DNA from: Promethearchaeota archaeon
Lineage (GTDB): Archaea; Asgardarchaeota; Lokiarchaeia; Sigyniarchaeales; Promethearchaeaceae
DNA length: 32,000 nucleotides
Assembly: GCA_016933055.1 (NCBI GenBank)
Contig: JAFGBS010000009.1
Span: forward strand, 390,001-422,000
Direction of reading: 5' to 3'
A program made the position numbers and the translations under genes. The notes beneath the pieces were generated by a model. That model was not told where the DNA came from. It made no database searches and worked only from the letters and a program-made list of their open reading frames with translations. Positions 2,409-30,813 of this stretch are shown here, piece after piece. Position 1 is the stretch's first letter. Every line of letters starts with the position of its first letter.

Positions 2409-4583
2409 ATGAATACCATGGAAAACTCGAAGGAAACTCCACAATACAAAACCGTTCCAATAAAAAGAAGTTATGATGCATCTGATATTATTATCCTCAA
2501 GGGATTGGAAGGAATTCGGAAGCGTCCAGCCATGTACATCGGTAGTACTGGGAAGGATGGATGGCATCACTTGCTCTGGGAAGTTGTTGACAATTCAATC
2601 GATGAGATCATGGCAGGAGGTTGTAATTCTATCAATGTCTCTTTAAATAAGGAAGGTAGTATCACAATTGAGGATAACGGTCGTGGGATTCCTATCGAAA
2701 TACATAAAGAATACAACCGCCCCACATTAGAAGTTATCGTAACAAATCTACATGCGGGAGGAAAATTTAAAAAAGATAGTTACAAAATCTCGGGAGGTCT
2801 TCATGGAGTTGGGCTTTCCGTGGTTGCTGCGTTATCTGAATGGATGTACGTAGAGGTATTTCGTGATGGAAAATACAGTGTACAAAAATTTGGAAAAGGA
2901 AATACCTTATCCAATTTATTAACTCGTCCTGTCGAGGAATACCAAGAAACTTCTGCTTTTAGGCGTGCTGAGAGACTTAATCTCACAAAACGGAATTTTG
3001 GAATGGGATCCCAACATAAGAAAAATGGAGAAGGAAAAGTACACAAAAACGGTGACGGTAACGGAAATGGAGAAGAAGAAGACATTAATTTTCAGTTTGA
3101 ACTTGGAATAGAAAATAATTACCATGGAACGAGAATCACTTTTATTCCGGACATTACTATTTTTCCCTCAATGATTGAGGAAGAACAGGTATTCGATTTT
3201 GATTTGATAAACACCAGATTGAGAGAATTAGCTTACCTTAATCCTGATGTTGAAATCCAAATTTATGATGAAATAACTAAAAAATATAATGATCACCATT
3301 ATGAAGGTGGAACAAGCGAGTTTGTATCTTACCTTAATAGCGGGAATAAAGTGTTGTTTGATGAACCTATCTCTATTCACAAGACTGAAGATGAAGTAGA
3401 CGTAGAGATTGCAATACAATATAATTACACATATTTAGAGCATATCATCTCTTTTGTAAATAATGTGAGTACACCTGAAGGAGGAACTCACGTAACTGGA
3501 TTTAAATCTTCATTAACTCGAACCATAAATCAGTATTTAACAAAATACCCCAGTAAAAAACTCAAAGACCATAATTTTTCGGGAACGGACGTGAGGGAAG
3601 GATTGACTGCAATCATTAACGTAAAAGTCCCAGAACCGCAATTTGAAGGTCAAACTAAATCAAAACTAGGCAATATGGAAGTTCAAGGAATTGTTAGTAG
3701 TGTAGTTACAGAAATGTTGGGGAAATTCCTCGAAGAAAATCCTGGTACGTCGAAATTAATTCTTGATAAATGCTTATTAGCTCAAAAAGCACGCATTGCA
3801 TCGAAAAATGCACGTGATCTCACACGAAGAAAATCTGCATTGGACTCTGGTCGTCTTCCGGGAAAATTGGCGGATTGCTCCTCTAAAAATGCCGAAGATT
3901 CTGAACTATTTATTGTTGAGGGTCCAAGTGCCGGGGGATCCGCTAAACAAGGCAGAAACAGGGAAATACAAGCAGTATTACCCTTACGAGGAAAAATTCT
4001 AAACGTCGAAAAAGCACGACCATTAAAAATCACCGAAAACGCTGAAATTCGTTCATTAATTTTAGCAATCGGAACTGGAATTTATACCAGTGAGGATTCT
4101 GGATTTGACATTGATAATCTACGATATCATAAGATCATCATTATGTGTGATGCTGACATCGATGGGGCTCATATCAAAACTCTACTTTTGACTTTTTTCT
4201 TCCGCTATATGCGACCTCTTATTGAAAATGATAACCTCTATGTCGCGGTACCACCTCTTTATCTCGTTTCGTATAAAAAAACAAAGAAATATATTTATGA
4301 TGATAAAGGGCTCAGTCCGTATTTAGATGAACTAAGAGAGCAATACAATTTAGAAGATAACGAGAGTATTAAGATTCAAAGGTTCAAAGGTTTAGGAGAG
4401 ATGAATCCTGAAGAACTATGGGAAACTACTATGGATCCTGAGAACCGTACACTCATCAAGATAGGATTTAATGATTTCACTGAAACCCATCAATTATTTA
4501 ATACCCTAATGGGGGAGGAAGTTTTTCCACGGAAAAAATTCATCATGGACCATTACAAAAATGTTCAAAATCTGGACATATAA
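2409..4583 (+). CDS. gyrB: DNA gyrase subunit B
   Basis: GHKL motifs EVVDNSIDE, DNGRGIP, LHAGGKF, GGLHGVG; PQFEGQTK; TOPRIM VEGPSAGG, PLRGKILN, DADIDG; QRFKGLGEMNP; alternative start at ATG 2418. Confidence 0.98.
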   Translation: MNTMENSKETPQYKTVPIKRSYDASDIIILKGLEGIRKRPAMYIGSTGKDGWHHLLWEVVDNSIDEIMAGGCNSINVSLNKEGSITIEDNGRGIPIEIHKEYNRPTLEVIVTNLHAGGKFKKDSYKISGGLHGVGLSVVAALSEWMYVEVFRDGKYSVQKFGKGNTLSNLLTRPVEEYQETSAFRRAERLNLTKRNFGMGSQHKKNGEGKVHKNGDGNGNGEEEDINFQFELGIENNYHGTRITFIPDITIFPSMIEEEQVFDFDLINTRLRELAYLNPDVEIQIYDEITKKYNDHHYEGGTSEFVSYLNSGNKVLFDEPISIHKTEDEVDVEIAIQYNYTYLEHIISFVNNVSTPEGGTHVTGFKSSLTRTINQYLTKYPSKKLKDHNFSGTDVREGLTAIINVKVPEPQFEGQTKSKLGNMEVQGIVSSVVTEMLGKFLEENPGTSKLILDKCLLAQKARIASKNARDLTRRKSALDSGRLPGKLADCSSKNAEDSELFIVEGPSAGGSAKQGRNREIQAVLPLRGKILNVEKARPLKITENAEIRSLILAIGTGIYTSEDSGFDIDNLRYHKIIIMCDADIDGAHIKTLLLTFFFRYMRPLIENDNLYVAVPPLYLVSYKKTKKYIYDDKGLSPYLDELREQYNLEDNESIKIQRFKGLGEMNPEELWETTMDPENRTLIKIGFNDFTETHQLFNTLMGEEVFPRKKFIMDHYKNVQNLDI

Positions 4584-4601: not shown

Positions 4602-7600
4602 ATGACGGAAATTGAAGAAGAAACATCCAAAAAACAAAGAAGTTCTGTAAGGGCTGAATCCATAAATACCCAGATGACACAGTCGTATCTAGATTACGCT
4701 TATTCTGTAATTATTGGTCGTGCGATTCCTGATGTTCGGGACGGTTTAAAACCTGTCCAGAGACGTATAGTGTATTCAATGTACACTAATAAATTCACAC
4801 ATACTAATCCTTATCGAAAATGTGCCCGAATCGTGGGTGATGTGTTAGGAAAATACCATCCCCATGGAGACGCTTCCGTATATGATTCTTTGGTTCGTAT
4901 GGCCCAAGATTTTTCGTTGCGATATCCATTAATCGATGGTCAAGGTAATTTTGGTTCCATAGACGGGGATCCGCCAGCTGCAATGCGATACTGTATAACA
5001 GGTGACTCACTGATTCTTACTGAAAATGGTATTATTCCCATCAAAGAGCTAACAGATTTAACCGATAATAAAACATCTCATTCAGATAAAGAAAATGGCT
5101 ATGAGGAGGATATAGACATTGAGATTTTATCAACAGGGAACACCAACAAAGCAAGCAAATTTTTTGATTCTGGAAGTCATGATATAATTCAAGTTAATAC
5201 AAATCTTGGTTATTCTATTAAGGGATCAAAGAATCATCCAATTCTATGTTGGGCTCCAGATATTAATGGAAAACCCACTACAATCTGGAAAACACTAGAA
5301 ACGCTTTCAATGGATGATGTCGTAGTACTTAACAGAAAAGGATTATTCACCAAACAAAATTATGATACAAAACCTCATATTCCCGAAATATCTGAAAATA
5401 GGCGTAGAGTTGAATTTCCAGAAGAAATTACTGAAGAATTAGCCTTTTCTCTAGGAGCTCTTATTGCTGAGGGCAGTGTTTCAGATACAGAACAGCAAAG
5501 ACTCTCATTTAACAATAAAGATCACAAATATTACGAAAAAGTCAAAAATGGATTACTAAATTCATTTCCAGGACTTACTGTGAACGAAAGAGAAGAATAT
5601 AATGGATGGAAAGAGTTTTCTCTTCATGTGAGAGATGTTCTTGATTTTCTTTATAGCATAGGACTTACTCCAGTCAAATCAGATAAGAAAGAGATACCAT
5701 TCTCAGTTTTACGCTCAAGTAAACCAGTTATAGCATCATTTTTAAAAGCATTGTTTGAAGGTGATGGGTCAATTCAAATAAATACAGATGCGAGACAGAG
5801 AGAGAAAACATCCAATCTAACCTACACATCAAAAAGCGTTAAATTACTTAATCAGTTAAAGAATGTTCTACTTAGTTTTGGAATAACCACGAGTCATCTT
5901 GTTTCAGATCCAAGAAATGATGTATTCAGAATTGTAATTCTTGGTTTAGAATCCAAGAGGAAATTCTTTGATGAAATCGGTTTCTTTTCATCAAGAAAAG
6001 CTGAAAGATTTAGAAAAAATAATGAAATAAATACTACTAGACTTAGCAAGACAGACTTTATTCCTTATCTAACTGAATATTTTAGAAATAAATACAATAA
6101 TCGATTTGATGAATTCTTTCAAAAACAGAATATTGATCGATATAACTCACTTCATAGGAAAATTAATCACATTCGTACTTTAGTAGAAAATAATGATGCA
6201 TTGTATCTTAATCAAATATTAGAAGATAATTACTTATATCAGGGAATTTCATCAATTAATCAACTTCCAAAGGAACATGTTTACTCAATTCGTGTTGATT
6301 CAGATTGCCATTCGTTCACAGCAAATGGTTTCATAAATCATAACACAGAAGCTCGATTGGATGTTATAGCCAGTGAGCTAATTGCTGACATAGAAAAAGA
6401 TACAGTGGGATTTGTACCTAATTTTGATGAATCTTTGAAAGAACCGGTATTCATGCCTTCAAAAATTCCGAACCTTATGATTAATGGTGCGAGTGGAATT
6501 GCAGTAGGCATGAGTACGAATATGCCTCCCTATAATCTTCGGGAGGTGGTACAAGGGATTATCGCAGTGATTGATAATCCCTACATGTATCCGGAAGAAT
6601 TATCCAAATACATAAAAGGTCCGGATTTTCCAACTAAAGGCATTATTATGGGTCGAAAAGGTATTCGAAACATAATAAATATGGGTAGAGGGAAAATTAC
6701 CGTTCGAGGAAGGGTGGAAATTGAAGAAAAATGTATGATCATAACGGAAATCCCTTATCAAGTAAATAAATTGAGACTAGTAGAGAATATCGCACGATTA
6801 ATCAATCATAAAAAAATTCGGGGTGTTTCGGATCTACGGGACGAATCTAACCGAGAAGGAATACGTATCGTATTAGATTTGACTAGGGATGCCGATCCGA
6901 ATGCTATAAAGTATCAATTATTCAGCATGACGCGATTGCAATCCTCTTATAGTATTCTCAATCGGGTACTTGTTGATAATAATGGTTTACAGCCTGCAAT
7001 TTTAAACATAATGGCCTTAATCAAGGCTCACATAGACAATCGAGAACAAATCATCATACGTAGAACCCAATATGATTTAGATCAAGCAAAAAAAAGACTG
7101 CATATTGCTGATGGGTTGTTAATTGCAATCCAAAATATCGACGAAGTAATACAAGTCATTAAAAAATCATCCGATACAACTGACGCACGGCAAGCCTTGA
7201 TGACCACCTTTTCCTTAACGGAGATACAAACAGATGCGATTTTAGAAATGCCACTCCGACGATTAACAAGTTTACAGACAAAAAAACTTCAAGATGAAAA
7301 AATAACCATCATAGAGAATATTCAGTTATGTGAGCAGATCCTAACAGATAAAAAAATGCGAATGACTATTATCAAAGAAGAATTGCACGAAATTGATAAA
7401 AAATATGGTGATGATCGTCTAACCGAGATTGAAGATGCACCAGAAGAGGCAGATGACCCTGAAGAAGAACAACTTAAGGTTATCCCTGAAGAAACTTGTG
7501 TAATAATTCTTACGGAGAATCAGTACATCAAGCGTATGACACTAAAGACATATCAAGCGCAAAATCGTGGGGGGAAAGGCAAAAAAGGTATTAATAAGCG

Positions 7601-8519
7601 TGAAGAAGATATCATTCGCGATGTGTACGTTGTTTCCAGTCATGATAAAGTATTATTATTTACGAAGATGGGTCGTGTATATTCTAAATACGCTTATGAA
7701 ATTCCTTTAATGAGTCGTACTTCTCGCGGAAAAGCCTTTGTAAATTTTGTGGGATTAAAACCGGACGAACAGATTGTACACATAGTTCCCGTTGCAGATT
7801 TTTTCCAAGAGGATTTTCTGATATTCGTAACCAAGCGAGGAATGGTGAAAAGGACAAATATTCGAGAATTCAAGAATATTCGCAAAACTGGTATATTGGC
7901 CATAAATTTACGCGAGAATGATGAATTGGTCAATGTGAAATTATCTGAAGAGGATTATTATATTTTAATCGCTACTGAAAATGGATACGCTATTAAATTT
8001 TCGGATTTAGAAGTTCGTCCTTTAAGTAGGAAAGCGATGGGGGTTGTAGGGATTCGGTTACGCGAAGAAGATAGCGTTGTAGATATGGTCATTGGAGATA
8101 ATGAAACAGATGTAATTACAATTACTAAAAATGGTTATGGAAAACGCTCAAAAGTGGAACTCTATCGGGAAACTCGTCGAGGAGGAAAAGGCGTAATTAA
8201 TATTAAATTCCATGATCCGGATGACTGTGTAACGGCAATAAAAGCAGCTACCGATGAAGATTTGTTAATTGCTACTACCAATGGAATTCTCATCCGTGTA
8301 CCATCCCTGAGTTTGCGCTCACTCAGTAGAAGTGCAAAAGGAGTAAAAGTAATTGAACTAAATGAAGATGATTTTGTTTCCAGTGTTGCCCTTTGTGAGC
8401 ATGCTTATGAAGATTATGAGGGAGATCTAGAGGACCAAAACAATGAATCTGAAGAAGATGAAGAATCTGACGAAGAATCTGATGAAGCAAACGAAGGGGC
8501 GCCACAAACAGAGAAATAA
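4602..8519 (+). CDS. gyrA: DNA gyrase subunit A, intein-containing precursor (1305 aa; about 854 aa after splicing)
   Basis: [31 protein letters not shown]|intein|[21 protein letters not shown]; GyrA-box QNRGGKG; beta-pinwheel repeats; acidic tail. Confidence 0.98.
4992..6344 (+). mobile_element. Intein (451 aa) with LAGLIDADG homing endonuclease at the GyrA catalytic-Tyr site
   Basis: Starts [10 protein letters not shown] immediately after AAMRY (Tyr130) and ends ANGFINHN followed by Thr(+1); block B-like GSKNHPIL; LAGLIDADG-like [10 protein letters not shown] and [11 protein letters not shown]; removing it restores AAMRYTEARL. Confidence 0.97.
8456..8485 (+). repeat. Short imperfect tandem repeat (GA(T/C)GAAGAATCT x2 + GATGAA) encoding the acidic GyrA tail [10 protein letters not shown]
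   Basis: Sequence gatgaagaatctgacgaagaatctgatgaa read directly. Confidence 0.7.
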
Positions 8520-8765: not shown

Positions 8766-9386
8766 ATGCCATCTAGACGCGGGGATAATTCATTAGTCTT
8801 CAAGATCGTCTTTTATGGTCCAACTATGGGAGGAAAAACAACCGCTCTTGAATGGATCTATAAGAAAGAGGGTCTAGCAAGCGGTAAATTGCAGAGCATC
8901 GCCGATCCGACTGGAAGAACACTTTTTTTTGATCGCGTTGTTGCGCGCGTATCAAACGTAGTTTTCCAATGTTTTACTGTAGCTGGCCAACGACGTCATA
9001 AATACCAAAGGAAGACTGTGATCAAGGGTGCCGACGCCATTATATTCGTTTGGGACTCTAGCCCTGATATGTGGGAAGAAAACATCTGGAGCTTCAAGGA
9101 GCTGATGCAATTCTATGGTCCAAAGTTGCTACCAGGTGAAGACGGACAGAGCGAAATTCCGTTAGTTATGTGCGCCAACAAGCGAGATTTACCAAATGTT
9201 ACACCAGTCGATAAAGTAAAAGAAGTCTTAACCAAAGCTGGGTTAGGAAATACCTTAATTTATGAAACCATAGCAATTACTGGAGTTAATGTCAAACGAG
9301 CGTTTGTTTATGGGGCACGGGAAGCCGTTCTGAAGCACTATTTGAAACTCAAAGGCTCGGGATCGGAACAAGCCACTGCATACTAA
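8766..9386 (+). CDS. mglA: MglA-family small Ras-like GTPase
   Basis: KIVFYGPTMGGKTT (G1), GRTLFFD (G2 with intrinsic Arg), FTVAGQ (MglA-type TVxGQ G3), ANKRDLP (G4), ETIAITG (G5). Confidence 0.85.
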   Translation: MPSRRGDNSLVFKIVFYGPTMGGKTTALEWIYKKEGLASGKLQSIADPTGRTLFFDRVVARVSNVVFQCFTVAGQRRHKYQRKTVIKGADAIIFVWDSSPDMWEENIWSFKELMQFYGPKLLPGEDGQSEIPLVMCANKRDLPNVTPVDKVKEVLTKAGLGNTLIYETIAITGVNVKRAFVYGAREAVLKHYLKLKGSGSEQATAY

Positions 9387-13119: not shown

Positions 13120-13512
13120 ATGGTAGATATGAATGAATTTTATCAATCTGCAGATTGGAAATCAGAAAAACATGTACCAGTCCTAAGTATTGAAGGTCCA
13201 GTTAAAAAAGGAGAATGGGTAAAAGTAAGTGCACAAATTGGGAAGGAAATCGGTCATCCCAATAAAACGGAGCATCATATTGCGTGGATTAAATTATTCT
13301 TTCATCCTAAAGGGGAAAAATATCCCTATGAAATTGGACAAGCAAATTTTAATGCGCATGGTGCATCTGTACAAGGTCCGGATACGAGTTCTATCTATAC
13401 TCATCATCAAGCTTTATTTATGTTCAAAACTGACAAACCTGGAACCTTAATTGCAGAAAGCTACTGTAATATTCATGGCGTGTGGAAAAACGAACACGAA
13501 ATAAGCTTTTAA
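13120..13512 (+). CDS. sor: 1Fe superoxide reductase (neelaredoxin / class II SORL)
   Basis: EKHVP, HPNKTEHHIAWI, YCNIHGVW supply the Fe ligand set; no desulforedoxin domain. Confidence 0.92.
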   Translation: MVDMNEFYQSADWKSEKHVPVLSIEGPVKKGEWVKVSAQIGKEIGHPNKTEHHIAWIKLFFHPKGEKYPYEIGQANFNAHGASVQGPDTSSIYTHHQALFMFKTDKPGTLIAESYCNIHGVWKNEHEISF

Positions 13513-15455: not shown

Positions 15456-15824
15456 GTGAAAAAAATGACAGAAGAACATAAAGAAAAAAAACGAACACAT
15501 AAACATAAAAGACAAGTTTGGGTTAATGCAAATAGTCCTAATGATTGTGGTTGCCAAGATCCTGATGATGAATTAATGATATTAAATTATGAAATTCCTG
15601 GAGCGAATAAAGAAAAGATCCATCTTCATGTTGTGGAAAATGGCCTACGTTTGGTTGCACCGAGATCAGATGAAGACTATGATTATGTCAGCACCTATAG
15701 TTTTACTTGTCCTGCAGATCCCAAAAATGTCAAAGCTAAGTATAATGATGGTATTTTAGAGGTTCACATACCATACAATTGCCCAAATCCGTATAAAGAT
15801 ATACCACCTGTAACCATAGAATAG
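15456..15824 (+). CDS. Hsp20/alpha-crystallin small heat-shock protein
   Basis: EIPGANKEKIHLHV and VKAKYNDGILEVHIP motifs; alternative ATG at 15465. Confidence 0.85.
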   Translation: MKKMTEEHKEKKRTHKHKRQVWVNANSPNDCGCQDPDDELMILNYEIPGANKEKIHLHVVENGLRLVAPRSDEDYDYVSTYSFTCPADPKNVKAKYNDGILEVHIPYNCPNPYKDIPPVTIE

Positions 15825-16323: not shown

Positions 16324-18012
16324 TTGATTCAGACGAGTTTAGAATTTAGTCGAATAGATGGAAAAAATGTCCACTTTTTTTTAATCGAACCAGAATATCC
16401 CATAGAATTTGAGTTCAATTCTGTTAATGAAACAAAATTGCACTATCCATGGAGAAATGGAGTTGATTCCCCCTACATAGCCCAACTGGAGCAAAATCTT
16501 AAGAAAGTTCGAAAAAAGACTCCAGCGACATTACTATTTATGGAAAGAGGAACTTCCCCACATCCTGATTTTCAACACGTAAGTATTGAAAATCTTGCAT
16601 ATACTATTGGAATACCCTTTAGATATATTGATCTACCAACAGATCTGATGGAAACTCAATTTTTAAGTTTAAAAAGACAATTGGACTATATTCAAAAATT
16701 GGAGAGTAAACGATCATCATTTCAAAATAAGGAAGGATATGAGGTTGAGGTCAGAAATTTAGATGCGTTAATTTTAGATGCTCGAGATTCTTTGAAGAAA
16801 GATCATTCCGAACTTGTTGGGAACAAGCGCCCACTATGGATTATGTTTCAAATAATAGAGATATTACGTCAATGGGATTCCAAAGAAATAAGCTGTATTC
16901 TCATTATTTCCAAAATAATGCACAAGGCAATATTAAAGATTGCAAATCAATTAGAATTGCAAACTGATCAATATTGTTTGTATCGAGACGTAATAGAATC
17001 TGTGGATGTATCAAATTTTACGAACGCCATTGAAAATAAGGATTTAATTCAGTATTCTCTTAAAAAAGAGAAAAAAAAGCAAGATAAAAAATACTTACTC
17101 TATATGGTCGATACAGATCCAATTGCAACACCTTATGATATTACTATGGCTTATGATGCAGGATATGACGCAGTGATCCATTTTGAAGATGTAAAACCAG
17201 AAGAAACCACCGGTTTAATACAAGATCTTGTGTTTTCTCGCAGAAATAATAAATATACTACACTGTTTTTAAACGGAAGGCATGAGAATGTGTTTTTTGA
17301 AGTATTAGACCGGGTCAAAAAATCAATGTTTGGTCCCTTTAAGGTATCTACAGTAATCGATCCCCGGGGAGCATGTTCAGGAGCGGGTGCTGCAGTTGCA
17401 CTTATTGAAGATCTGGTATATACACGAAGATTAGGAAAAATTGAGAATAAGTCAGTGGTAGTATTTGGTGGAACGGGACCTTTCGGACACCTAATAGCGA
17501 CATTGTTGTACAAAGATGGATGCGACGTATGTATTGTAGAAACATGGAATCAACGAGACAAGAAATTTTTAAAGGAATTTCTAGATTATACGAAAAAAAC
17601 CTATAATGTACGTCTTACAGGTGCACTTGCTTTTGATGAGGAATCGAAACTTCATCTTGCTCAAAATGCTGATGTTATTATCTCAACTGCTGCTCCTGGA
17701 ATTCAAATTCTGGATAAAAATATCATGCAACAAATTCCTAAAGGAAAACTAGCGATTGATACCAATATGGTCATACCAGCAGGTATTGAAGGTATTTCAG
17801 AGGACATGGATGGGCAAGAGATTTATCCAGGAATTTTTGCAATTGGTGCATTGACTATCGGGGCTCTTAAATACAAAGTAGAAATGAAAATGTTGAAAGA
17901 CGCGAAAAATGCAAAATCAGGATTTTTTGACTTATATTACGCAGTAAAAGCAGCAAAAAGAATCTTGAATTTACCCGAGAAGAAAAAAAGATTAGATGAA
18001 CGCTTAAAATAA
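16324..18012 (+). CDS. MtdA/MtdB-family methylene-H4MPT/H4F dehydrogenase fused to an unknown N-terminal domain of about 250 aa
   Basis: From about aa 255: YLLYMVDTDPIATPYDITMAYDAGYD, MFGPFKVSTVIDPRG, VFGGTGPFG, DTNMVIPAGIEGI, AIGALTIGALKYK; TTG start. Confidence 0.82.
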   Translation: MIQTSLEFSRIDGKNVHFFLIEPEYPIEFEFNSVNETKLHYPWRNGVDSPYIAQLEQNLKKVRKKTPATLLFMERGTSPHPDFQHVSIENLAYTIGIPFRYIDLPTDLMETQFLSLKRQLDYIQKLESKRSSFQNKEGYEVEVRNLDALILDARDSLKKDHSELVGNKRPLWIMFQIIEILRQWDSKEISCILIISKIMHKAILKIANQLELQTDQYCLYRDVIESVDVSNFTNAIENKDLIQYSLKKEKKKQDKKYLLYMVDTDPIATPYDITMAYDAGYDAVIHFEDVKPEETTGLIQDLVFSRRNNKYTTLFLNGRHENVFFEVLDRVKKSMFGPFKVSTVIDPRGACSGAGAAVALIEDLVYTRRLGKIENKSVVVFGGTGPFGHLIATLLYKDGCDVCIVETWNQRDKKFLKEFLDYTKKTYNVRLTGALAFDEESKLHLAQNADVIISTAAPGIQILDKNIMQQIPKGKLAIDTNMVIPAGIEGISEDMDGQEIYPGIFAIGALTIGALKYKVEMKMLKDAKNAKSGFFDLYYAVKAAKRILNLPEKKKRLDERLK

Positions 18013-18014
18013 GG

Positions 18015-19022
18015 GTGGGCTTCTTGCAAATCGACGAAAATATATATAAAAAAGTGATGTTACAGAATAATTTGAATAATTGTTCCGAAACAATCCTCAA
18101 AATAAAGGATAAACGCAAAAAATATCTGCTGTTTATGATAGATACGGATCCTAAAGCTTCCCCCTTTGACATCAATATGGCATATGAATCAGGTTACGAT
18201 ATGTGTGTGCATTTTGCAGGTTTGACCCCTGAACAAGCTATGGGATTTATGTTAGATCTCTATTATGCGCGTTCAGAAAAAAACCATAAATATACAACGA
18301 TGTTTCTGAACGGAAAAGATTTTGATAAAGTGTATGATGCATTCCATAAGGCGAAAATTGCAATGGGAGGAGATATACGGATTCCCTTAGTGATCGATCC
18401 AAGAGGAGCTGCAACGACTGCAGCCTCCTTAGTCGCAAAAATGAAAAATGTCTTTTTACAAAAAGGGGAACAACTAAAAAATCAAAAAATTACGATTCTC
18501 GGAGGTACAGGTCCCGTGGGACGTATTGCAGGTGCTTTATGCAATAGAGAAGGGGCAGATACATATATAATTGAAACTTGGGATCAACGTAATCAAGAAT
18601 GGCTTGATAATTTCATCCATAAATTCAATCAAGAATATGATGTGGCACTGAAAAGTTTGTTATTGACTAATGAAACAAAACGCTTGGAGCACTGTATGGA
18701 TACAGACTTGATCATATCTTGTGGTGCAGCCGGTATTGAATTACTTGGTACAAATTCGATGGAAATTCTTTCTCAGAAAGCTCCAGGAAAGCAATGTGTA
18801 GATATCAATTTGGTTCCCCCTCCCGGTATTAATGGGATTAAACCAGATTCAGATGGAGGAGAAATTTTTCCCGGTATTTACGGATATGGTCCATTAAATA
18901 TCGGACAAATTAAATTTCAAACGGAAATCGCGATTTTAGAAGAAGCTCGAAAAGCGGAATATGGTATTTTTGATTTTAATCGAGCCTATGAAATAGCAAA
19001 AAAAATGATAAAAATAGATTAA
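18015..19022 (+). CDS. MtdA/MtdB-family methylene-H4MPT/H4F dehydrogenase (paralog 2)
   Basis: LFMIDTDPKASPFDINMAYESGYD, IDPRGAATTAA, ILGGTGPVG, DINLVPPPGINGI, GYGPLNIGQIK; GTG start 2 nt after the upstream stop. Confidence 0.87.
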   Translation: MGFLQIDENIYKKVMLQNNLNNCSETILKIKDKRKKYLLFMIDTDPKASPFDINMAYESGYDMCVHFAGLTPEQAMGFMLDLYYARSEKNHKYTTMFLNGKDFDKVYDAFHKAKIAMGGDIRIPLVIDPRGAATTAASLVAKMKNVFLQKGEQLKNQKITILGGTGPVGRIAGALCNREGADTYIIETWDQRNQEWLDNFIHKFNQEYDVALKSLLLTNETKRLEHCMDTDLIISCGAAGIELLGTNSMEILSQKAPGKQCVDINLVPPPGINGIKPDSDGGEIFPGIYGYGPLNIGQIKFQTEIAILEEARKAEYGIFDFNRAYEIAKKMIKID

Positions 19023-19038: not shown

Positions 19039-19959
19039 TTACTCCTTCGATTTTTTCTTATTTTTTTTTCTTTCAATAATTTCTTTCGCAAAATCATAAT
19101 ATTCAAGGAAAGAAAAAATTTCAAAACCCGATGCATCCATCATTTCTTGCAGAACCGTTTTTTCTACTTTTAATTTAACCTGACCAGTAGAGAGTGCACC
19201 AAAAATATAAGAATTCTCATATTCTACTCCCTTCCACATAGGTTCGATTCCCTCTATACCCAACGGAGGTACGGCATTTGCATCTGCATAGATTTTATTT
19301 TCAGGAATTTTTTGTAAAGTAGTCGCTGAAATCAGTTGTACACCAGGGGCACCACATGTGAATACAAGATTTTTGTCTTCGCATAATTCCACTCGATGTA
19401 TTTCATCTCCCATGGCTTCGGGTTTAATATCCACTCGATACGTCATATTCAATTCATTTGCTGCTCTTTCTGCTCTTTCTTGCGAACGGGATAATAGAGT
19501 TGTTTCTGCTCCTCCTTTAGCGCACAATACCGATACAGTCTGTCCTACCATGCCTGTTCCTGCAAAGATAATCACTTTGCAGTCTTTAAGGGATTTTTTT
19601 TCTATTAGGTGGAGATAAGCTTCTACTTGAGCAACCAAAGTGGCTCCCGTTGTATATCCTCCTCTTGGATCAATGCAAGTAGTCAATTCAAAACCTGGTA
19701 TCATACTTTCTCTTGCAATGTCTAAAATTCTCTTTAGTTGGGCGTGATTTGACCCATTTAAAAAGATTTTTGTATTTTTTGCCCCCTTTTCGCCTCTGGA
19801 AAACATAGCATCTTCAATTATTCGCACTATATTCCATTCATTAATCCCTCCCATTGGGACAACAATATCATATCCCGCATCATATGCAACATTGATGTCG
19901 AACGGAGAGGGTAATGGATCTGTATCTAAGAGGTACAGAATCATTTTTTTATCAGACAT
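19039..19959 (-). CDS. mtdA: MtdA-like NADP-type methylene-H4MPT/H4F dehydrogenase (paralog 3, closest to canonical)
   Basis: LDTDPLPSPFDINVAYDAG, FSRGEKGAKNTKIF, DPRGGYTT, FAGTGMVG, LSRSQER, DANAVPPLGIEGI, FGALSTGQVKLK; MtdA versus MtdB not resolvable by eye. Confidence 0.88.
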   Translation of the reverse strand: MSDKKMILYLLDTDPLPSPFDINVAYDAGYDIVVPMGGINEWNIVRIIEDAMFSRGEKGAKNTKIFLNGSNHAQLKRILDIARESMIPGFELTTCIDPRGGYTTGATLVAQVEAYLHLIEKKSLKDCKVIIFAGTGMVGQTVSVLCAKGGAETTLLSRSQERAERAANELNMTYRVDIKPEAMGDEIHRVELCEDKNLVFTCGAPGVQLISATTLQKIPENKIYADANAVPPLGIEGIEPMWKGVEYENSYIFGALSTGQVKLKVEKTVLQEMMDASGFEIFSFLEYYDFAKEIIERKKNKKKSKE

Positions 19960-23149: not shown

Positions 23150-23662
23150 GTGACAAAAACATCTGAAAATTTGATGACAGCTTTTGCTGGAGAAAGTCAA
23201 GCGAATCGAAAATACCTTGCCTATGCAGAAAAAGCAGAGAAGGATGGATTTCTGCAAATAGCAAAGGTTTTTCGAGCAGCTGCAGTTGCTGAATCAATCC
23301 ATGCACAAAACCACTTCCGTACGGGTGGTCATGTAAACAATACGGTAGAAAACTTAATTGATGCGATTTCAGGGGAACACTACGAATTTACTTCTATGTA
23401 TCCTGATTTTTTAACTATGGCGATTCAAGAGGGCAATAAAAAAGCTGAAAAGAGTTTTCATTGGGCTAATGAAGTTGAAAAAATGCATCATCGGCTGTAT
23501 ACAGAAGCACTCAGTGTAGCTAAATCTGAAAAAGATTTAGAAGAAAAGGAGATGTGGGTTTGCTCGATTTGTGGGGCCACCTTTGAAGGTAATCATGAAG
23601 ATCTGGAAGAAATATGCCCTGTTTGCCAAACCAAGAAAGATAAATACATAAAAATTGATTAA
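23150..23662 (+). CDS. rbr: Rubrerythrin
   Basis: AFAGESQANRKY, AESIHA, ISGEHYEFTSMYP, EVEKMHH; C-terminal WVCSICG..CPVC. Confidence 0.95.
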   Translation: MTKTSENLMTAFAGESQANRKYLAYAEKAEKDGFLQIAKVFRAAAVAESIHAQNHFRTGGHVNNTVENLIDAISGEHYEFTSMYPDFLTMAIQEGNKKAEKSFHWANEVEKMHHRLYTEALSVAKSEKDLEEKEMWVCSICGATFEGNHEDLEEICPVCQTKKDKYIKID

Positions 23663-24599: not shown

Positions 24600-24773
24600 C
24601 CTAATTTACCACTTTTTTCTGTATAATTTTGGTATTGAGTATTAACATAAATGCTTTTTTATGAATCATGACCAAAGTCCTATCTATCTATCTATCGTAT
24701 ATTTTGTGAGAAAACTTTTTTAATTTCTACATTAACTTTTATCTATCAATTTTAAAGTTGAATGGTCGAAAAA

Positions 24774-24905
24774 ATGGCAGCTACAAGATGGTTGTGTCTG
24801 GTTTGTGGATGGGAAACGGAAGAAAAATACGAAGAATTACCCGATGATTTTGAGTGTCCATTATGCGGAGCTGGAAAAGAAGATTTCGAGCGAATAGAAG
24901 AATAA
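24774..24905 (+). CDS. Rubredoxin (very short, 43 aa; 47 aa from alternative ATG 24762)
   Basis: Below the ORF-track cutoff; manual translation MAATRWLCLVCGWETEEKYEELPDDFECPLCGAGKEDFERIEE* has CxxCG, ELPDDF, CPxCG, KEDF. Confidence 0.93.
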   Translation: MAATRWLCLVCGWETEEKYEELPDDFECPLCGAGKEDFERIEE

Positions 24906-24921
24906 AAAACAATTTCAATTT

Positions 24922-25254
24922 TTATCTTTTTTCTTTATTGGGCAGAACCGATTTTAGGAGTCTGAGATATCGAATAGCTTCGCTTCGTTCTTCTGTATGT
25001 ATGCCATGGAAGATTTTCTTTAGAATTCCTATTTTTTGGATACTGCTAAAATGAACATTTAAGAAATCATCCAGATTTTGTTCATTATTCATCCAAAAAA
25101 TAGTGTTTTCAATTATAATACTGATTTTATTATTTTTATGCAACTCTAAGATCTTCCCAGAACATTCAACAATAGGAAGTTTATATCCTTGATTTGAAGG
25201 AAGTGGAGAAACATCATCAATAAATGAATGTAAACCAATTACTGTTTCTACCAT
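24922..25254 (-). CDS. Hypothetical protein
   Basis: 110-aa ATG-started ORF converging on the rubredoxin gene; no motif. Confidence 0.5.
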   Translation of the reverse strand: MVETVIGLHSFIDDVSPLPSNQGYKLPIVECSGKILELHKNNKISIIIENTIFWMNNEQNLDDFLNVHFSSIQKIGILKKIFHGIHTEERSEAIRYLRLLKSVLPNKEKR

Positions 25255-25395: not shown

Positions 25396-25707
25396 TCAAT
25401 GTAGATGGTCTTCAATTTCTAATAATTTATTTATGGTGTAGAATCGTTTAAAATCCATCAAATCTTCTCCAAAATAATATTCTCCCGTTTCCGCCAAACG
25501 AATTGCAGGTAAATCTGAGTAGCATTCTTCTATATTACAGAATTTTTTAGCAAACTTGGGATCCTGTAGTAAACGTTTAACTACAGCTTCATCTTCTACA
25601 TTCCATACCTCAAATTCACCAACTTTTGACTGAAGATACTTAGATACGAATTCACAATTTTTGCAGCCCGGTTTAATTAGTAAAGCAAATTTTTTCAGAT
25701 TATTCAC
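25396..25707 (-). CDS. Glutaredoxin/thioredoxin-like protein
   Basis: LLIKPGCKNCEFV (CxxC after the first strand), SDLPAI cis-Pro-like motif. Confidence 0.75.
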   Translation of the reverse strand: MNNLKKFALLIKPGCKNCEFVSKYLQSKVGEFEVWNVEDEAVVKRLLQDPKFAKKFCNIEECYSDLPAIRLAETGEYYFGEDLMDFKRFYTINKLLEIEDHLH

Positions 25708-26205: not shown

Positions 26206-27546
26206 TTATTTGGGCCAGACTTTTTTGAAGGCAGTTTTAGGGAAAAAACAGTATGGACAATGATCTGGAGGCTCTTCTCCATAATGTACATAGCCACAGA
26301 TCCTACATCTCCACGCAGTTTGCTCTTTCATTCCCTCACGTGCAGCCTGTTCTGCATTGTCTGCTTTTAGCCTTGGGAGTTCATCCAATGGAGGCATAAC
26401 CGGTTTCATCTTAGATAAGTAGCGATACACTACCAACCTTTGAACTTCTGATGTCCCTTCATATATAGTTAATACCCGAATGTCTCGCAGTAATTTCTCA
26501 ATGGGATAAAATCTAGTATAACCATACCCGCCAAAAATCTGCAACGCATCATTGAGAACTTGTTGAGCGACTTCAGTAGTGTAAAATTTCGTGATTGACG
26601 CTGATAAGGTATTATCCATGCCTCGATCAGCCTCCCATGCAGATTTCCAGATCATGAGGCGTGAGGCTTCGATTTTTTGATACATTTCTGCTATTTTGAA
26701 CTGAATCGCTTGAAATTCCGATAGTTTCATCGTAAAAGCTCTTCTTTTATTTGCATAATCCATAGCGAATTCCATAGCAGATCTGGCAGCACCAACTGCA
26801 AAAGAACCAATAATGGGTCTAGTTGATGAAAATGTTTTCATTGCTAATAAAAATCCTGTACCTGGAATTGCAATCACGTTTTTTGCAGGAACATGCACAT
26901 TATCGAAATGCACCGCCGTTGTACTAGATACTCTTTGACCAAGTTTTGGTATATGCTCCCCCACTGTTATTCCATCCCAATCCATCTCCACAAAGAAAGC
27001 ACATAAACCTTTATGTCGTAATTTCGGATCTACAGTAGCAAAGATACTAGCATAATCTGCATATCCACCATTCGTCACCCAATATTTCGTTCCGTTTAAG
27101 ATGTAGTCTTCACCATTTTTTTCCGCCTTGCAACGAATACCCGCAACATCCGATCCCATACCGGGTTCACTTGTTGCAAAAGACACAATCTTAGGTTCTC
27201 TCACACAAGCAGAAAGATACTTTTCTTTCGCCCCCTCATTTCCTGATAAGATCAAAGGTTCTTGTCCAAGGGAATTACCAAATATTGATGTTCCCATTGC
27301 AGGACATGCTGCAGCAACCTCTTCTACAACTATTGATGCATCTAATAAATTATAGCCATGACCGCCATACTCTTTTGGAATACCCAAATTATTCAATCCA
27401 GCAGCATGTGCTTTTTGTAATAAGAATTTTGGTGGAACGTCCATCTCATCGAAATAATTCACAACGGGGAGAATTTCATCTAAAGCAAATTTACGAGCTT
27501 TCTTTTGAAGTTTTTTTTGTTCTAAGGAAAGTGTGAAATCTATCAT
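26206..27546 (-). CDS. Acyl-CoA dehydrogenase with C-terminal rubredoxin-like domain
   Basis: FATSEPGMGSDV, NGTKYWVTNG, KLGQR, FQAIQFKIAEM, QIFGGYGY, IYEGTSEVQR (catalytic Glu); tail WRCRICGYVHYGEEPPDHCPYC. Confidence 0.95.
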   Translation of the reverse strand: MIDFTLSLEQKKLQKKARKFALDEILPVVNYFDEMDVPPKFLLQKAHAAGLNNLGIPKEYGGHGYNLLDASIVVEEVAAACPAMGTSIFGNSLGQEPLILSGNEGAKEKYLSACVREPKIVSFATSEPGMGSDVAGIRCKAEKNGEDYILNGTKYWVTNGGYADYASIFATVDPKLRHKGLCAFFVEMDWDGITVGEHIPKLGQRVSSTTAVHFDNVHVPAKNVIAIPGTGFLLAMKTFSSTRPIIGSFAVGAARSAMEFAMDYANKRRAFTMKLSEFQAIQFKIAEMYQKIEASRLMIWKSAWEADRGMDNTLSASITKFYTTEVAQQVLNDALQIFGGYGYTRFYPIEKLLRDIRVLTIYEGTSEVQRLVVYRYLSKMKPVMPPLDELPRLKADNAEQAAREGMKEQTAWRCRICGYVHYGEEPPDHCPYCFFPKTAFKKVWPK

Positions 27547-27797
27547 TTTTTAACCAACATTTTTATGATAATCCTAAATTGAAAAAATCAAATATGAGTT
27601 TTCTGATCCGAATTACTTATAAAAAAAAAGGTAATTTAAACTCGTTAAACTGAATAAGAATTTCGTATAATCTTAATAGTAACCAATAATTTTTATGATT
27701 ACAGAAAATTAATGCATCTGATGATTTCAGTAACCGCAAATGCTTTAAAGAGCCAAAGCAAAGCAACTTTATAGAATTAGTAACAAGTGATAGAATA

Positions 27798-28247
27798 ATG
27801 GCACCAATTAAATTAGGGGATACAGTTACAGTTCACTATCGTGGAACTCTGGATAATGGGGATAAATTTGCTGATTCCGAAGAACAAGGTCCTATCGAAT
27901 TTGTGGTGGGAGATCATCTCGTCATTTTTGAAAATGCTGTCATTGGAAAAGAAATTGGAGAAGATTTTACGATTATGATTTCTGCTGAAGACGCCTATGG
28001 GGAGTATGATGAAGAAAATCAGCAAGAATTCGAAAAAGCCGAATTAGATCTCGATAAATATGAAGTTGGTATGCAATTAGCATTCCAACAGGGTTGCGAC
28101 GAGGAAGATCCAGAAGAATGTGACCAAATTCATGAAATTGTAGGGGAGATCGTAGAAGTCAAGAAAGATTCCGTCATAATTGACTTCAATCACCCGCTAG
28201 CTGGCCAGAATTTGAATTTTTGGATAAAAATTGAGGATGTAAAATAA
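27798..28247 (+). CDS. slyD: FKBP-type peptidyl-prolyl isomerase with insert-in-flap domain (SlyD/SlpA-like, no His-rich tail)
   Basis: GDTVTVHYRGTL, AEDAYGE, IDFNHPLAGQNLNF. Confidence 0.88.
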   Translation: MAPIKLGDTVTVHYRGTLDNGDKFADSEEQGPIEFVVGDHLVIFENAVIGKEIGEDFTIMISAEDAYGEYDEENQQEFEKAELDLDKYEVGMQLAFQQGCDEEDPEECDQIHEIVGEIVEVKKDSVIIDFNHPLAGQNLNFWIKIEDVK

Positions 28248-28258
28248 AAAAATTGGGA

Positions 28259-29494
28259 TTATGAGATTAATTTTTTAGGTATCTCTTTGATACTTCGTGC
28301 AAATTCTGCAGCTTTTTCTTCTGCTATTCTTAAATCTTCATTAGTTGGTCCCCCTTGAAATTCTAGAATTGAATCAACATCCCAGTTTAGATTTTTGATA
28401 CGTTCTTCAAAGCCTTTTTCCGCTCCCCCAACCCAACCATAGGAACCAAATCGCATGACTTTTTTGTGCTTGAATCTTTTTAGTTTCATTAAATCCAAAA
28501 CATAAGCCATAGGCGGAAATACAGAATATTCATAGGTAGGCATTCCAATCACAATACCTGCTGATCTCCAGGCAGACGCAAGAACATTTGACACATGCGT
28601 CTCTGGTACTTTATGAATAGTAACTTTAACCCCCTCCTTGGCAATTCCTCTAAGGATAGCTCTGAGCATCACTTCCGTATTACTGTACATGGATCCCCAA
28701 ATAACGGTGATCTCGGGCTCTCCATAATCATTTGCGTAATTTGCATATCGTTGATACCGTTCAATGATTTCCATTGGATTTCTCCAGATTAGACCATGGG
28801 ATGGAGCAATGATTTTAATTTTATCTAATAAACTGCCCAGTTTATCAATAGCTTTAAGTACAAATGCAGAGAAAGCTGCGACAATGTTCGCATAGTAACG
28901 TAGTGTTTCGCCCTCAAAGAATGCTATATCTTCCTTGGGAATCTCGTCTGCGAATATAGTACCTTTGAATGCTCCAAAAGAACCAAAGGCATCACAACTA
29001 AATAAGACTCCGGTAGATTCTTCAAAAGTTACCATAGTTTCCGGCCAGTGCACATTGGGAATATCGTAGAAGTGTAATATTTTCCCCTTCCCTAAATCGA
29101 GGGTATCCCCATCTCCCACTCCCCGAATATTTTCTGAGATATGATAAAATGCCTCTACTAATTTGACTCCTTTTTTACTAGTGATAATTTCCGCGTTAGG
29201 GCAGTATTTGTGAAGTACAGGAAGAAATCCCGTATGATCTGGTTCTAAATGATTTAAAATTATATAATCAATATGTTCAGGTTCAATCCCTACACTCTTA
29301 AACTGTTGATTCAGACTAGCAGAAGATCCTCCTCCGCTCGATTTCACTATATCAATGATTGCGGTTTTATCTCCTCGAACAATGTAGGAATTGATTGTAA
29401 CTCCATCTGGAATTGGCCAGATTCCTTCAAACAAATCGTTCGTATAATCATTAACACCTGTCCAATAAACTTCCTCAGCTATTTTTTGTGCCAT
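28259..29494 (-). CDS. fprA: Flavodiiron protein (class A; O2/NO reductase)
   Basis: NHLEPDH, HWPE, SCDAFG, APSHG diiron ligands; flavodoxin domain WGSMYSNTE, GMPTY, FGSYGWVGGA. Confidence 0.95.
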   Translation of the reverse strand: MAQKIAEEVYWTGVNDYTNDLFEGIWPIPDGVTINSYIVRGDKTAIIDIVKSSGGGSSASLNQQFKSVGIEPEHIDYIILNHLEPDHTGFLPVLHKYCPNAEIITSKKGVKLVEAFYHISENIRGVGDGDTLDLGKGKILHFYDIPNVHWPETMVTFEESTGVLFSCDAFGSFGAFKGTIFADEIPKEDIAFFEGETLRYYANIVAAFSAFVLKAIDKLGSLLDKIKIIAPSHGLIWRNPMEIIERYQRYANYANDYGEPEITVIWGSMYSNTEVMLRAILRGIAKEGVKVTIHKVPETHVSNVLASAWRSAGIVIGMPTYEYSVFPPMAYVLDLMKLKRFKHKKVMRFGSYGWVGGAEKGFEERIKNLNWDVDSILEFQGGPTNEDLRIAEEKAAEFARSIKEIPKKLIS

Positions 29495-29578
29495 ATATTT
29501 TCACTCTCATCATAAATACTTTATATTTTCCAATTTAGTAGATAAGTTTAAAATTTTTATATTTATCAAAATAAGCGA

Positions 29579-29593
29579 GAATTGTCATAATTC
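29579..29593. promoter_or_regulatory. Quasi-palindrome in the divergent fprA / oxidoreductase promoter region
   Basis: GAATT-GTCAT-AATTC, 23 nt upstream of ATG 29617; short arms, may be chance. Confidence 0.3.
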
Positions 29594-29616
29594 GTTCTAG
29601 AATAGGTTTTGTATCC

Positions 29617-30813
29617 ATGAAAGTAATTATCGTGGGAAATGGAGTCGCTGGACAGACCTTGGCTGAAACCATCCGACGTAATAACAAAGAGATGGATATT
29701 ACCCTCTTTACTGAGGAAAGTCATCCTTATTATTCACGGATTCTTTTACCCCATTTTGTTGCTGGGAACCGTACATTAGAAAATTTATACGTACGGAAAA
29801 AAGAATGGTATAGTGATCAAAGTATTCGATTCATTAATGCTACTAAAATCACTAAAATTGACTTAGGAGAGAAAAAAATCTCGAGTGCGGAAGGTGATTC
29901 GTTTCCATATGATAAGCTTGTTCTATCAGTAGGTAGTTCCCCCCGTAAACTTGATTTCGGAAATCCTAATGTAAATCTACAAGGGAATTTTGCTTTACGT
30001 TCAATATCCGATGCTGAACAAATCCAACACTATGCAAAAAAGAAGCCGGTTAAACGGGCATTTATCGTTGGAGGAGGACTTTTAGGGATTGAACTAGGAT
30101 TTCATTTGAGAAAGATGGTAGATCAAGTACAAATTTGTGAGATTGCCCCTTATCTACTTCCTCGTCAGTTAGATAGGGAAACGTCAAAAATCCTGCAGAC
30201 ATATTTGGAAGACCAAGGATTGCAATTTATTCTTGGGGATTCCGTTGAGAAAATTTTGGGGAACAACTCGTTGGAGGCTATTAGATTGCAGAGTGGTAAA
30301 GAAATAGAAACTGATATGATTCTCCAACAGCTCGGAATTATTCCTAACACGGAATTGGCACAAGAAAGTAGATTAAATTCACAAAAAGGAATTATTGTGA
30401 ATGAATTCATGCAAACGTCAGATCGTGATGTTTATGCGGCAGGAGATTGTATTCAATTTGAAGATAAGATTTGGGGTATCATTCCTGCAAGTATCGAACA
30501 AGCAAAACAAGCTGCAGCACACATTCTTAATGAGAATCCCGAACCTTATACTCCATCAATATGGAATACTCGTCTAAAAGTCGCTGGGATTGATCTCACT
30601 TGCATTGGACTTTCATCACCAGAAGCAGAAGAAGGAGCAACTCTTTATGAATATCGAAGACAGGATACCTATACATGTCGTAAGGTCATTATTCGGGATA
30701 ATGTTCTCACTAATGCTATCCTCCTAGGACCCGGGGCAGACTCGAAATTCTTTCTGAAAAAAGCAGGGAAAGAAGTTGATCCTCAAGAAGTAAAAGAAAA
30801 AGTCAAAGAATAA
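29617..30813 (+). CDS. FAD-dependent NAD(P)H:rubredoxin oxidoreductase-like (NROR/NirB N-terminal family)
   Basis: IVGNGVAG, PYYSRILL, YDKLVLSVGS, IVGGGLLGIE, VYAAGDC, TRLKVAGID; no fused Fe-S or rubredoxin domain. Confidence 0.88.
   Translation: MKVIIVGNGVAGQTLAETIRRNNKEMDITLFTEESHPYYSRILLPHFVAGNRTLENLYVRKKEWYSDQSIRFINATKITKIDLGEKKISSAEGDSFPYDKLVLSVGSSPRKLDFGNPNVNLQGNFALRSISDAEQIQHYAKKKPVKRAFIVGGGLLGIELGFHLRKMVDQVQICEIAPYLLPRQLDRETSKILQTYLEDQGLQFILGDSVEKILGNNSLEAIRLQSGKEIETDMILQQLGIIPNTELAQESRLNSQKGIIVNEFMQTSDRDVYAAGDCIQFEDKIWGIIPASIEQAKQAAAHILNENPEPYTPSIWNTRLKVAGIDLTCIGLSSPEAEEGATLYEYRRQDTYTCRKVIIRDNVLTNAILLGPGADSKFFLKKAGKEVDPQEVKEKVKE

Follow-up and report, generated by a model that had tools for sequence, protein, structure and literature searches.

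A 32,000-nucleotide stretch of the genome of a Promethearchaeota archaeon (GenBank assembly GCA_016933055.1, contig JAFGBS010000009.1, positions 390,001 to 422,000; hereafter the window) encodes an acyl-CoA dehydrogenase (ACAD) that ends in a rubredoxin-like domain (the whole protein hereafter ACAD-Rd) and, on the same strand, a class A flavodiiron protein (FDP). An earlier note, made from the letters of the window alone, had proposed that the two proteins couple acyl-CoA oxidation to O2 reduction, and its description of an intact ACAD with a C-terminal Cys4 domain agrees with our analysis. The three-domain ACAD fold (Acyl-CoA_dh_N, Acyl-CoA_dh_M and Acyl-CoA_dh_1) scores above the Pfam thresholds (PF02771, 81.9 bits; PF02770, 75.9 bits; PF00441, 163.6 bits; cut-offs 22.9, 33.3 and 22.4, respectively), and the PDB structures closest to residues 2-377 are the Thermus thermophilus ACAD 1UKW and mammalian medium-chain acyl-CoA dehydrogenases (MCADs; E 1e-101 to 1e-103), butyryl-CoA dehydrogenase structures being more distant. 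As to substrate class, its sequence places the predicted enzyme nearest the MCAD type only. The catalytic glutamate of the YEGT motif (E363) and W156 and T158 of the FAD region are invariant in an alignment of 60 homologues and align with 1UKW. MCADs that use electron-transferring flavoprotein (ETF), such as the human and pig enzymes and 1UKW, share the YEGT glutamate and the FAD-contacting W-x-T-N-G-G motif with ACAD-Rd, but lack its 70-residue C-terminal extension, which consists of a conserved linker and the rubredoxin-like domain; the genomic partner of ACAD-Rd is FDP rather than ETF, and some of its relatives are without ETF altogether.

The tail is a RUBY_RBDX domain (44.9 bits against a cut-off of 26.5) with the cysteine pattern C414-x2-C417-x12-C430-x2-C433, all four cysteines being invariant in the 60 homologues. 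Taken alone, the tail finds its best PDB match (E 6e-9) in the rubrerythrin of Desulfovibrio vulgaris, and there in the C-terminal domain, which binds iron in crystal structures and is about 60% identical to the tail over 30 residues. The two domains have the same cysteine spacing, C-x2-C-x12-C-x2-C, and agree in the W-R-C-R and P-K-x-x-F motifs that flank it (PDB 1RYT/1LKM), but in the rubrerythrin the domain sits on a diiron four-helix bundle, whereas here it sits on a flavoprotein dehydrogenase, and the positions after the second and fourth cysteines are Asn and His in the rubrerythrin but Ile and Phe in ACAD-Rd. In a sister clade within the orthologous group, the MPxLxxLP linker motif is also present but is followed at this position by a canonical rubredoxin. 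Because the iron domain of rubrerythrin is the closest relative of the tail and a canonical rubredoxin takes its place in the sister clade, sequence comparison favours a redox function over that of a structural Zn ribbon and indirectly supports Fe, not Zn, as the probable metal. In the AlphaFold2 model of ACAD-Rd the mean pLDDT is 91, with values of 85-89 in the linker and 94-96 in the rubredoxin-like domain, and this confident placement of linker and domain suggests that the latter is docked in a defined manner on the predicted ACAD core.

ACAD-Rd lies 712 bp downstream of the FDP gene, as the earlier note had estimated (about 0.7 kb), although the note had missed a gene for an FKBP-type peptidyl-prolyl isomerase in the gap. 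This gene is convergent with FDP and divergent from ACAD-Rd, which has its own 251-bp upstream region; the same insertion was otherwise seen only in a 78%-identical relative (L010). The Pfam domains of FDP are ODP (residues 33-234) and Flavodoxin_1 (264-384), with no further domains, and the protein, having only the metallo-beta-lactamase and flavodoxin domains, is therefore of class A. Its diiron ligands H82/E84/D86/H87/H149/D168/H233 (H-x-E-x-D-H...H...D...H) are invariant in 29 relatives, and its PDB matches include the NorV core, Moorella FprA and Desulfovibrio gigas rubredoxin:oxygen oxidoreductase (ROO). We considered and set aside the reading of FDP as an F420H2 oxidase: PDB scores do not separate the FDP types, and the adjacent genes for rubredoxin and an NAD(P)H:rubredoxin oxidoreductase (NROR) favour a rubredoxin-dependent enzyme. 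The NROR-like gene diverges from FDP across 122 bp, again as the note had described, and lies at most 3.3 kb from ACAD-Rd; its product carries Pyr_redox_2 (193.7 bits) and Rubredoxin_C (28.2 bits against a cut-off of 25.9) and matches NCBIfam NorW at 1.9e-49, below the equivalog cut-off of that model.

The note's reading of the neighbourhood, right as to FDP and NROR, had overlooked a free rubredoxin, a rubrerythrin and a superoxide reductase (Table 1). The free rubredoxin, encoded 1.3 kb downstream of ACAD-Rd, is the sole PF00301 match in the 3.76-Mb genome and is kept near the ACAD gene in relatives; the genome as a whole holds one FDP, one free rubredoxin, one close NROR and two rubrerythrins. 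Superoxide reductase, Hsp20, rubrerythrin, rubredoxin, FDP, NROR and ACAD-Rd make up an 18-kb rubredoxin-centred oxidative-stress island of the type found in anaerobes, and the equivalent locus of family f3 is likewise such an island. The NROR of family f3 (450 aa; L117:5264-6616, + strand) has a rubredoxin of its own fused to the C-terminus, and thus rubredoxin modules occur fused to both candidate electron donors of FDP. The f3 island also has a hybrid-cluster protein (Hcp), a PAS protein and a CoA-disulfide-reductase-like protein with rhodanese and TusA domains.

Table 1 Features of the window, with ACAD-Rd and its putative partners first
Feature	Position	Strand	Evidence or remark
ACAD-Rd, acyl-CoA dehydrogenase with C-terminal rubredoxin-like domain (P0001, 446 aa)	26206-27546	-	Pfam
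Rubrerythrin-type Fe(Cys)4 domain (predicted) of ACAD-Rd, residues 412-441	26224-26313	-	PF21349
Class A FDP (P0002, 411 aa)	28259-29494	-	Pfam ODP/Lactamase_B + Flavodoxin_1
NROR-like flavoprotein (P0003, 398 aa)	29617-30813	+	Pyr_redox_2 + Rubredoxin_C
Free rubredoxin (47 aa)	24762-24905	+	PF00301, 2.4e-8
Rubrerythrin (170 aa)	23150-23662	+	Pfam Rubrerythrin + RUBY_RBDX
Superoxide reductase, desulfoferrodoxin/neelaredoxin type (130 aa)	13120-13512	+	PF01880, 1.4e-29
Hsp20	15456-15824		
FKBP/SlyD-like peptidyl-prolyl isomerase (149 aa)	27798-28247	+	Pfam FKBP_C, NCBIfam PRK10737
Divergent intergenic region ACAD-Rd/FKBP	27547-27797	.	carries 21-nt direct repeat
Small ORF directly downstream of ACAD-Rd (103 aa)	25396-25707	-	no Pfam match
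Small ORF directly downstream of ACAD-Rd (110 aa)	24922-25254	-	no Pfam match
Mpt_N-domain gene (methylene-tetrahydromethanopterin dehydrogenase N-terminal), first of three adjacent	16324-18012	+	Mpt_N
Mpt_N-domain gene, second of three	18015-19022	+	Mpt_N
Mpt_N-domain gene, third of three	19039-19959	-	Mpt_N
Arf/Ras-family small GTPase	8766-9386	+	typical Asgard eukaryotic signature protein
Large ORF	2409-4583		
Large ORF	4602-8519		

The best 120 database matches to ACAD-Rd (62-88% identity, 442-470 aa) all carry the PF21349 tail, and at 50% clustering the family has one representative. Named homologues come from Promethearchaeota/Lokiarchaeia, including Promethearchaeum syntrophicum (P0061, 65% identical), and from Desulfobacterales and Syntrophales. 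The best of them are those from Promethearchaeota/Lokiarchaeia, and the genomes of the window and of P. syntrophicum both fall in family f1, so that the assignment to the Asgard archaea stands. ACAD orthologues were located at E <= 1e-120 in 400 genomes of the phylum, and up to 20 kb around some 80 copies was scanned by tblastn with the FDP, NROR, rubredoxin and rubrerythrin of the window; contigs found by exact protein look-up were added, and the counts for the order come from about 60 genomes. The earlier note had named absence of FDP synteny in relatives as the outcome that would speak against its proposal; we found FDP upstream on the same strand in 49 of the 62 assessable orthologous loci of the same order, at a distance of 137 bp or less (10-137 bp) in 40 of them, and the link extends to 13 of 18 genera. 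Three forms of the enzyme occur at these loci. Form C (families f1 and f4 and part of f3), to which the window belongs, has the rubrerythrin-type tail and FDP upstream on the same strand in 21/22 assessable loci: 12 with gaps of 10-60 bp, in some of which just 1-3 bp separate the FDP stop from the ACAD start, and nine, from the family of the window or close to it, with gaps of 0.5-7 kb (6.9 kb in P. syntrophicum). Form B (466-473 aa) continues from the MPxLxxLP linker into a canonical rubredoxin (CxxC(G/A)...CPxCG) and has FDP 48-63 bp upstream in 9/20 assessable loci, usually in the layout NROR...Rd-FDP-ACAD-Rd. Form A (392-394 aa) ends right after the MPxL motif and has no tail, and in 19/20 loci it stands in the order Rd-FDP-ACAD, with FDP 22-137 bp upstream.

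The flanks of the pair vary between families (DUF1028 and MFS genes in L013; Hcp, PAS, NROR-Rd and HAD genes in L117) while the pair persists, and FDP and ACAD are therefore a conserved unit. By comparison, none of 19 plain ACAD homologues (49-53% identical) from another Asgard family, f31, has FDP, rubredoxin or NROR within 9 kb, and FDP was found near ACAD-Rd in 0/13 loci outside Asgard archaea (12 bacterial, one Theionarchaea; a locus search with the ACAD-Rd protein alone returned 11, 10 bacterial and one Theionarchaea). Two genomes of genus g19 that are without the ACAD orthologue gave no FDP match either. Genus g13, also without the orthologue, has its FDP among methyltransferase and dockerin genes, an unrelated and uninformative context. 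An apparent FDP-ACAD fusion in two genomes (G144 and G146; 1028-aa open frame) was rejected, since on translation a stop codon separates the two genes and the frame is one of 467 aa.

The cores of 99 ACADs were placed in a maximum-likelihood tree under LG+C20 PMSF (UFBoot/SH-aLRT support in parentheses). It unites the FDP-linked ACADs of the order in one clade (98/96), sister to the unlinked f31 enzymes, within which the rubrerythrin-tail forms (100/98) and the canonical-rubredoxin forms (99/97) are each a clade. The tail-less form (100/98) is nested in the canonical-rubredoxin clade, so that its tail was lost secondarily, in operons that contain a free rubredoxin gene. That two different rubredoxin folds stand behind one common linker points to an ancient fusion in which the domain was later exchanged, a history that, as read from the sequences, is strong if indirect evidence that the tail would function like a rubredoxin rather than a Zn ribbon. 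ACAD-Rd outside Asgard archaea is found in Desulfobacterales, Syntrophales and Spirochaetota (59-65% identical) and in one Theionarchaeon. The 12 bacterial enzymes sampled, which were chosen by similarity to the query, form one clade (99/99), and bacteria and Theionarchaeon fall in an unresolved group with the two f1/f4 Asgard clades, an Asgard f3 clade branching deeper; with bacterial sequences so chosen, the tree suggests transfer of rubrerythrin-tail ACAD-Rd between domains, in one direction or the other.

No ETF genes lie in the window, as the note had stated, but the genome has an etfAB pair that the note had missed (contig C16:266291-269752), the source of the only two ETF matches genome-wide. 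The pair is not beside any ACAD gene: ahead of it is the gene for a GXGXG-motif (glutamate-synthase-like) protein and after it that for a flavodoxin, and EtfA is extended at its N-terminus by a 2x[4Fe-4S] ferredoxin domain. The pair may be an ETF module of the bifurcating type that has nothing to do with ACAD genes. The genome has four other ACADs, 26-36% identical to ACAD-Rd. ETF_alpha is present in 86 of the 94 genomes of the order with at least 90% completeness. Five relatives (G134, G136, G137, G178 and G222), of which G134 and G137 are single contigs, gave no match to PF00766 or PF01012 and yet keep 5-14 genes of the ACAD family, among them the orthologue of this ACAD (with or without tail) next to or near FDP; this is compatible with an ETF-independent enzyme, but not specific proof of one, because the other ACADs of those genomes are also without ETF. 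A rival supposition is that ACAD-Rd is an ordinary ETF-dependent or otherwise conventional ACAD, that its Cys4 tail is a structural Zn ribbon or a docking module and that its proximity to FDP reflects co-regulation within a stress island rather than electron transfer. The etfAB pair, the separate upstream region of ACAD-Rd with its presumed promoter, the unrelated contexts of the 12 sampled bacterial loci and the ability of Cys4 knuckles of such spacing to bind Zn all fit that supposition. We nevertheless consider it quite unlikely: the nearest relative of the tail with a solved structure is an iron-binding domain, the tail of the sister clade is a canonical rubredoxin and a free rubredoxin gene joins the operon where the tail has been lost, five relatives keep the gene without any ETF genes, and the pairing with FDP persists while the flanks change.

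The Fusobacterium precedent that the earlier note had named is real. According to PMC12288474, PMC12528894 and PMC13404960, Bystrom & Wolthers (Biochemistry 2024) showed that the butyryl-CoA:oxygen oxidoreductase (BOOR) of F. nucleatum is an alpha4beta4 complex of BCR and the FDP FN1423, in which BCR combines a Bcd domain, an ETF-alpha FAD domain and a rubredoxin. In this complex the oxidation of butyryl-CoA is coupled to the reduction of O2 to H2O, and NO reductase activity is absent; the pair is common among butyrogenic Firmicutes, and in Lachnospiraceae its genes are reported to lie beside anaerobe oxidative-stress genes such as that for rubrerythrin (PMC13404960). BOOR and the archaeal module have in common an ACAD with a C-terminal rubredoxin-type Fe(Cys)4 domain (predicted in the archaeal protein) and an adjacent class A FDP gene, and the flow proposed for the archaeal pair, from acyl-CoA through FAD, rubredoxin and FDP to O2, is the same. 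The precedent does not extend to the ETF-alpha FAD domain, which BCR has and for which ACAD-Rd gives no PF00766 match. A BCR-type representative (P0237, 638 aa) consists of ACAD, ETF_alpha (437-517) and Rubredoxin, with the FDP gene 4 bp after it; at 34% identity it is no closer to the ACAD of the window than ordinary Bcd is, and less close than MCAD-type enzymes, so that the two are not orthologous. The tail of BCR is a canonical rubredoxin whereas that of ACAD-Rd is of the rubrerythrin type, and BCR precedes FDP in the bacterial type whereas FDP precedes ACAD in the archaea. BOOR is bicistronic; in the window the 712-bp gap with its opposite-strand FKBP gene intervenes, and 40 related archaeal loci are close-paired in the reversed order. 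The archaeal module is thus not a member of BOOR but resembles it in logic. With the NROR-Rd-FDP chains of D. gigas ROO, the Moorella FprA cluster and Escherichia coli NorV/NorW the window shares a class A FDP, an NROR-like protein and a free rubredoxin, but the donor in those chains is NAD(P)H only, whereas the Asgard operons have a conserved ACAD, with or without fused rubredoxin, as an extra member.

From these comparisons we consider it somewhat probable that ACAD-Rd and FDP are an independently evolved analogue of BOOR that does without the ETF domain, with ACAD-Rd as an electron input for FDP-centred O2 defence; the earlier note's suggestion that acyl-CoA is a source of electrons for O2 scavenging finds support in the same comparative evidence. 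ACAD-Rd would then be the electron-input module of a rubredoxin-dependent defence, chiefly that by FDP. Acyl-CoA would be converted to enoyl-CoA at the FAD of the ACAD, and electrons would leave the FAD singly. Their way out would be the tethered, putatively iron-containing Fe(Cys)4 domain or, where relatives have no tail, free rubredoxin; by presumed contact with FDP they would reach the FMN and then the diiron site of that enzyme, where O2 would be reduced to water. NAD(P)H, by way of NROR and free rubredoxin, would be a second, parallel input, and the same rubredoxin pool may also supply rubrerythrin and superoxide reductase.

Several observations weigh against this proposal. NROR and free rubredoxin are by themselves a complete conventional donor chain for FDP, and the etfAB pair provides the genome with an ETF. 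We know of no ACAD in which a rubredoxin centre takes electrons straight from the FAD, and in BOOR the FAD of the ETF-alpha domain, absent from ACAD-Rd, stands between the two. The potential of an Fe(Cys)4 centre of the rubrerythrin type can exceed +200 mV, and from such a centre transfer to the FMN of FDP would be uphill. FKBP lies on the opposite strand between ACAD-Rd and FDP, and there can therefore be no single transcript of the two in this genome; throughout its family, f1, the gaps between FDP and ACAD are 0.5-7 kb. No adjacent FDP accompanies 11 of the 20 assessable loci of form B, some of which are NROR-Rd-ACAD-Rd operons, and two genomes that are 97-98% complete keep ACAD-Rd without any FDP match. 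None of the 12 bacterial loci sampled is linked to FDP, which suggests an FDP-independent role of the putative enzyme in bacteria.

The FDP-less loci bear on a reversed flow, in which ACAD-Rd would act as an enoyl-CoA reductase that depends on rubredoxin: NAD(P)H would reduce NROR, NROR the free or tethered rubredoxin, and rubredoxin the FAD of the ACAD, which would reduce an enoyl-CoA such as crotonyl-CoA, so that the rubredoxin pool would gain an anoxic electron sink beside FDP, rubrerythrin and superoxide reductase. Rubredoxin and the enoyl-CoA/acyl-CoA couple have nearly the same potential, and the step should be reversible. Tight NROR-Rd-ACAD-Rd operons without FDP in L078, L079, L093 and L097, the two FDP-less relatives, the closeness of NROR in the window and the rubredoxin-fused NROR of f3 all suit this direction. 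We think it unlikely, as no gene, NROR included, is coupled to ACAD so tightly and so widely as FDP (10-137 bp, 40 loci), L078 looks like a recent clean deletion of FDP from an operon that its genus mates L081, L082 and L084 have kept, and no rubredoxin-dependent enoyl-CoA reductase appears in the full-text literature that we searched for ACAD-rubredoxin fusions.

Another way to accommodate the archaeal and bacterial copies without FDP is to let acyl-CoA electrons leave through the tail but end on a different acceptor, namely rubrerythrin (reducing H2O2), superoxide reductase or some other partner. The tail is of the rubrerythrin type, rubrerythrin and superoxide reductase are both encoded in the window and rubrerythrin lies within a few kb of ACAD in most f3 loci, and the persistence of ACAD-Rd in bacteria and in some genomes without FDP would be explained. 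This we regard as very unlikely, however, because neither rubrerythrin nor superoxide reductase is ever the immediate same-strand neighbour of ACAD, which FDP is in 40 loci, and BOOR shows that an FDP can accept such electrons.

If FDP is the acceptor, a broader and more tentative history can be drawn, one that we hold to be possible but would not call probable: Lokiarchaeia may ancestrally have had an independently evolved, ETF-free acyl-CoA:oxygen oxidoreductase, in which an MCAD-like dehydrogenase passed electrons directly to a tethered or free rubredoxin and from there to an FDP encoded just upstream, with the tail swapped once (rubrerythrin against canonical type) and lost once, and the rubrerythrin-tail form spreading to sulfate-reducing and syntrophic bacteria. 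On this history, the closest cultured relatives of the host lineage of eukaryotes could use O2 as a soluble electron sink without a respiratory chain, oxidizing acyl-CoA derived from fatty acids or amino acids.

The region upstream of ACAD-Rd holds a 21-nt direct repeat, TnATCATAAAAATnnTGGTTA on the - strand, with copies at 27551-27571 and 27681-27701, both between ACAD-Rd and FKBP, one of which stops 5 nt ahead of the ACAD-Rd start codon. At three or fewer mismatches the window contains 3 matches, where 0.29 would be expected, two of them in this intergenic region, and the repeat could be an operator or promoter element. In a search of this AT-rich DNA for an operator motif common to the stress genes, the repeat upstream of ACAD-Rd alone stood out, and the upstream regions of FDP/NROR, rubredoxin and rubrerythrin gave no convincing motif in common with it. 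On the other side of ACAD-Rd, the first of the two small ORFs (25396-25707) contains a C-x2-C motif, and L010 has two small unannotated ORFs at the same position. Further away, the three Mpt_N genes are a local paralogue cluster.

In full-text literature searches, we found no paper that links Asgard archaea with an ACAD-rubredoxin fusion, in agreement with the earlier note, which knew of no archaeal description, and none apart from one F420 review that links them with flavodiiron proteins. The same searches found no description of such a fusion in archaea or sulfate reducers, and the papers found on Desulfobacterium and Desulfococcus make no mention of the bacterial ACAD-Rd fusion.

Asgard archaea are regarded as strict anaerobes, and how they cope with oxygen is central to models of eukaryogenesis. 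If the proposal holds, Lokiarchaeia would scavenge O2 with electrons from acyl-CoA, a weak reductant, so that NADH and ferredoxin would be spared. ACAD-Rd would be without precedent among ACADs in handing electrons to a rubredoxin centre with no ETF-type flavin between, and would be a case of convergent evolution with the bacterial BOOR. By the model set out for BOOR (PMC12288474), a bifurcating ETF system could re-reduce the enoyl-CoA product and yield reduced ferredoxin. The module consists of small soluble proteins and is directly testable, the cultured relative P. syntrophicum carrying the orthologue P0061.

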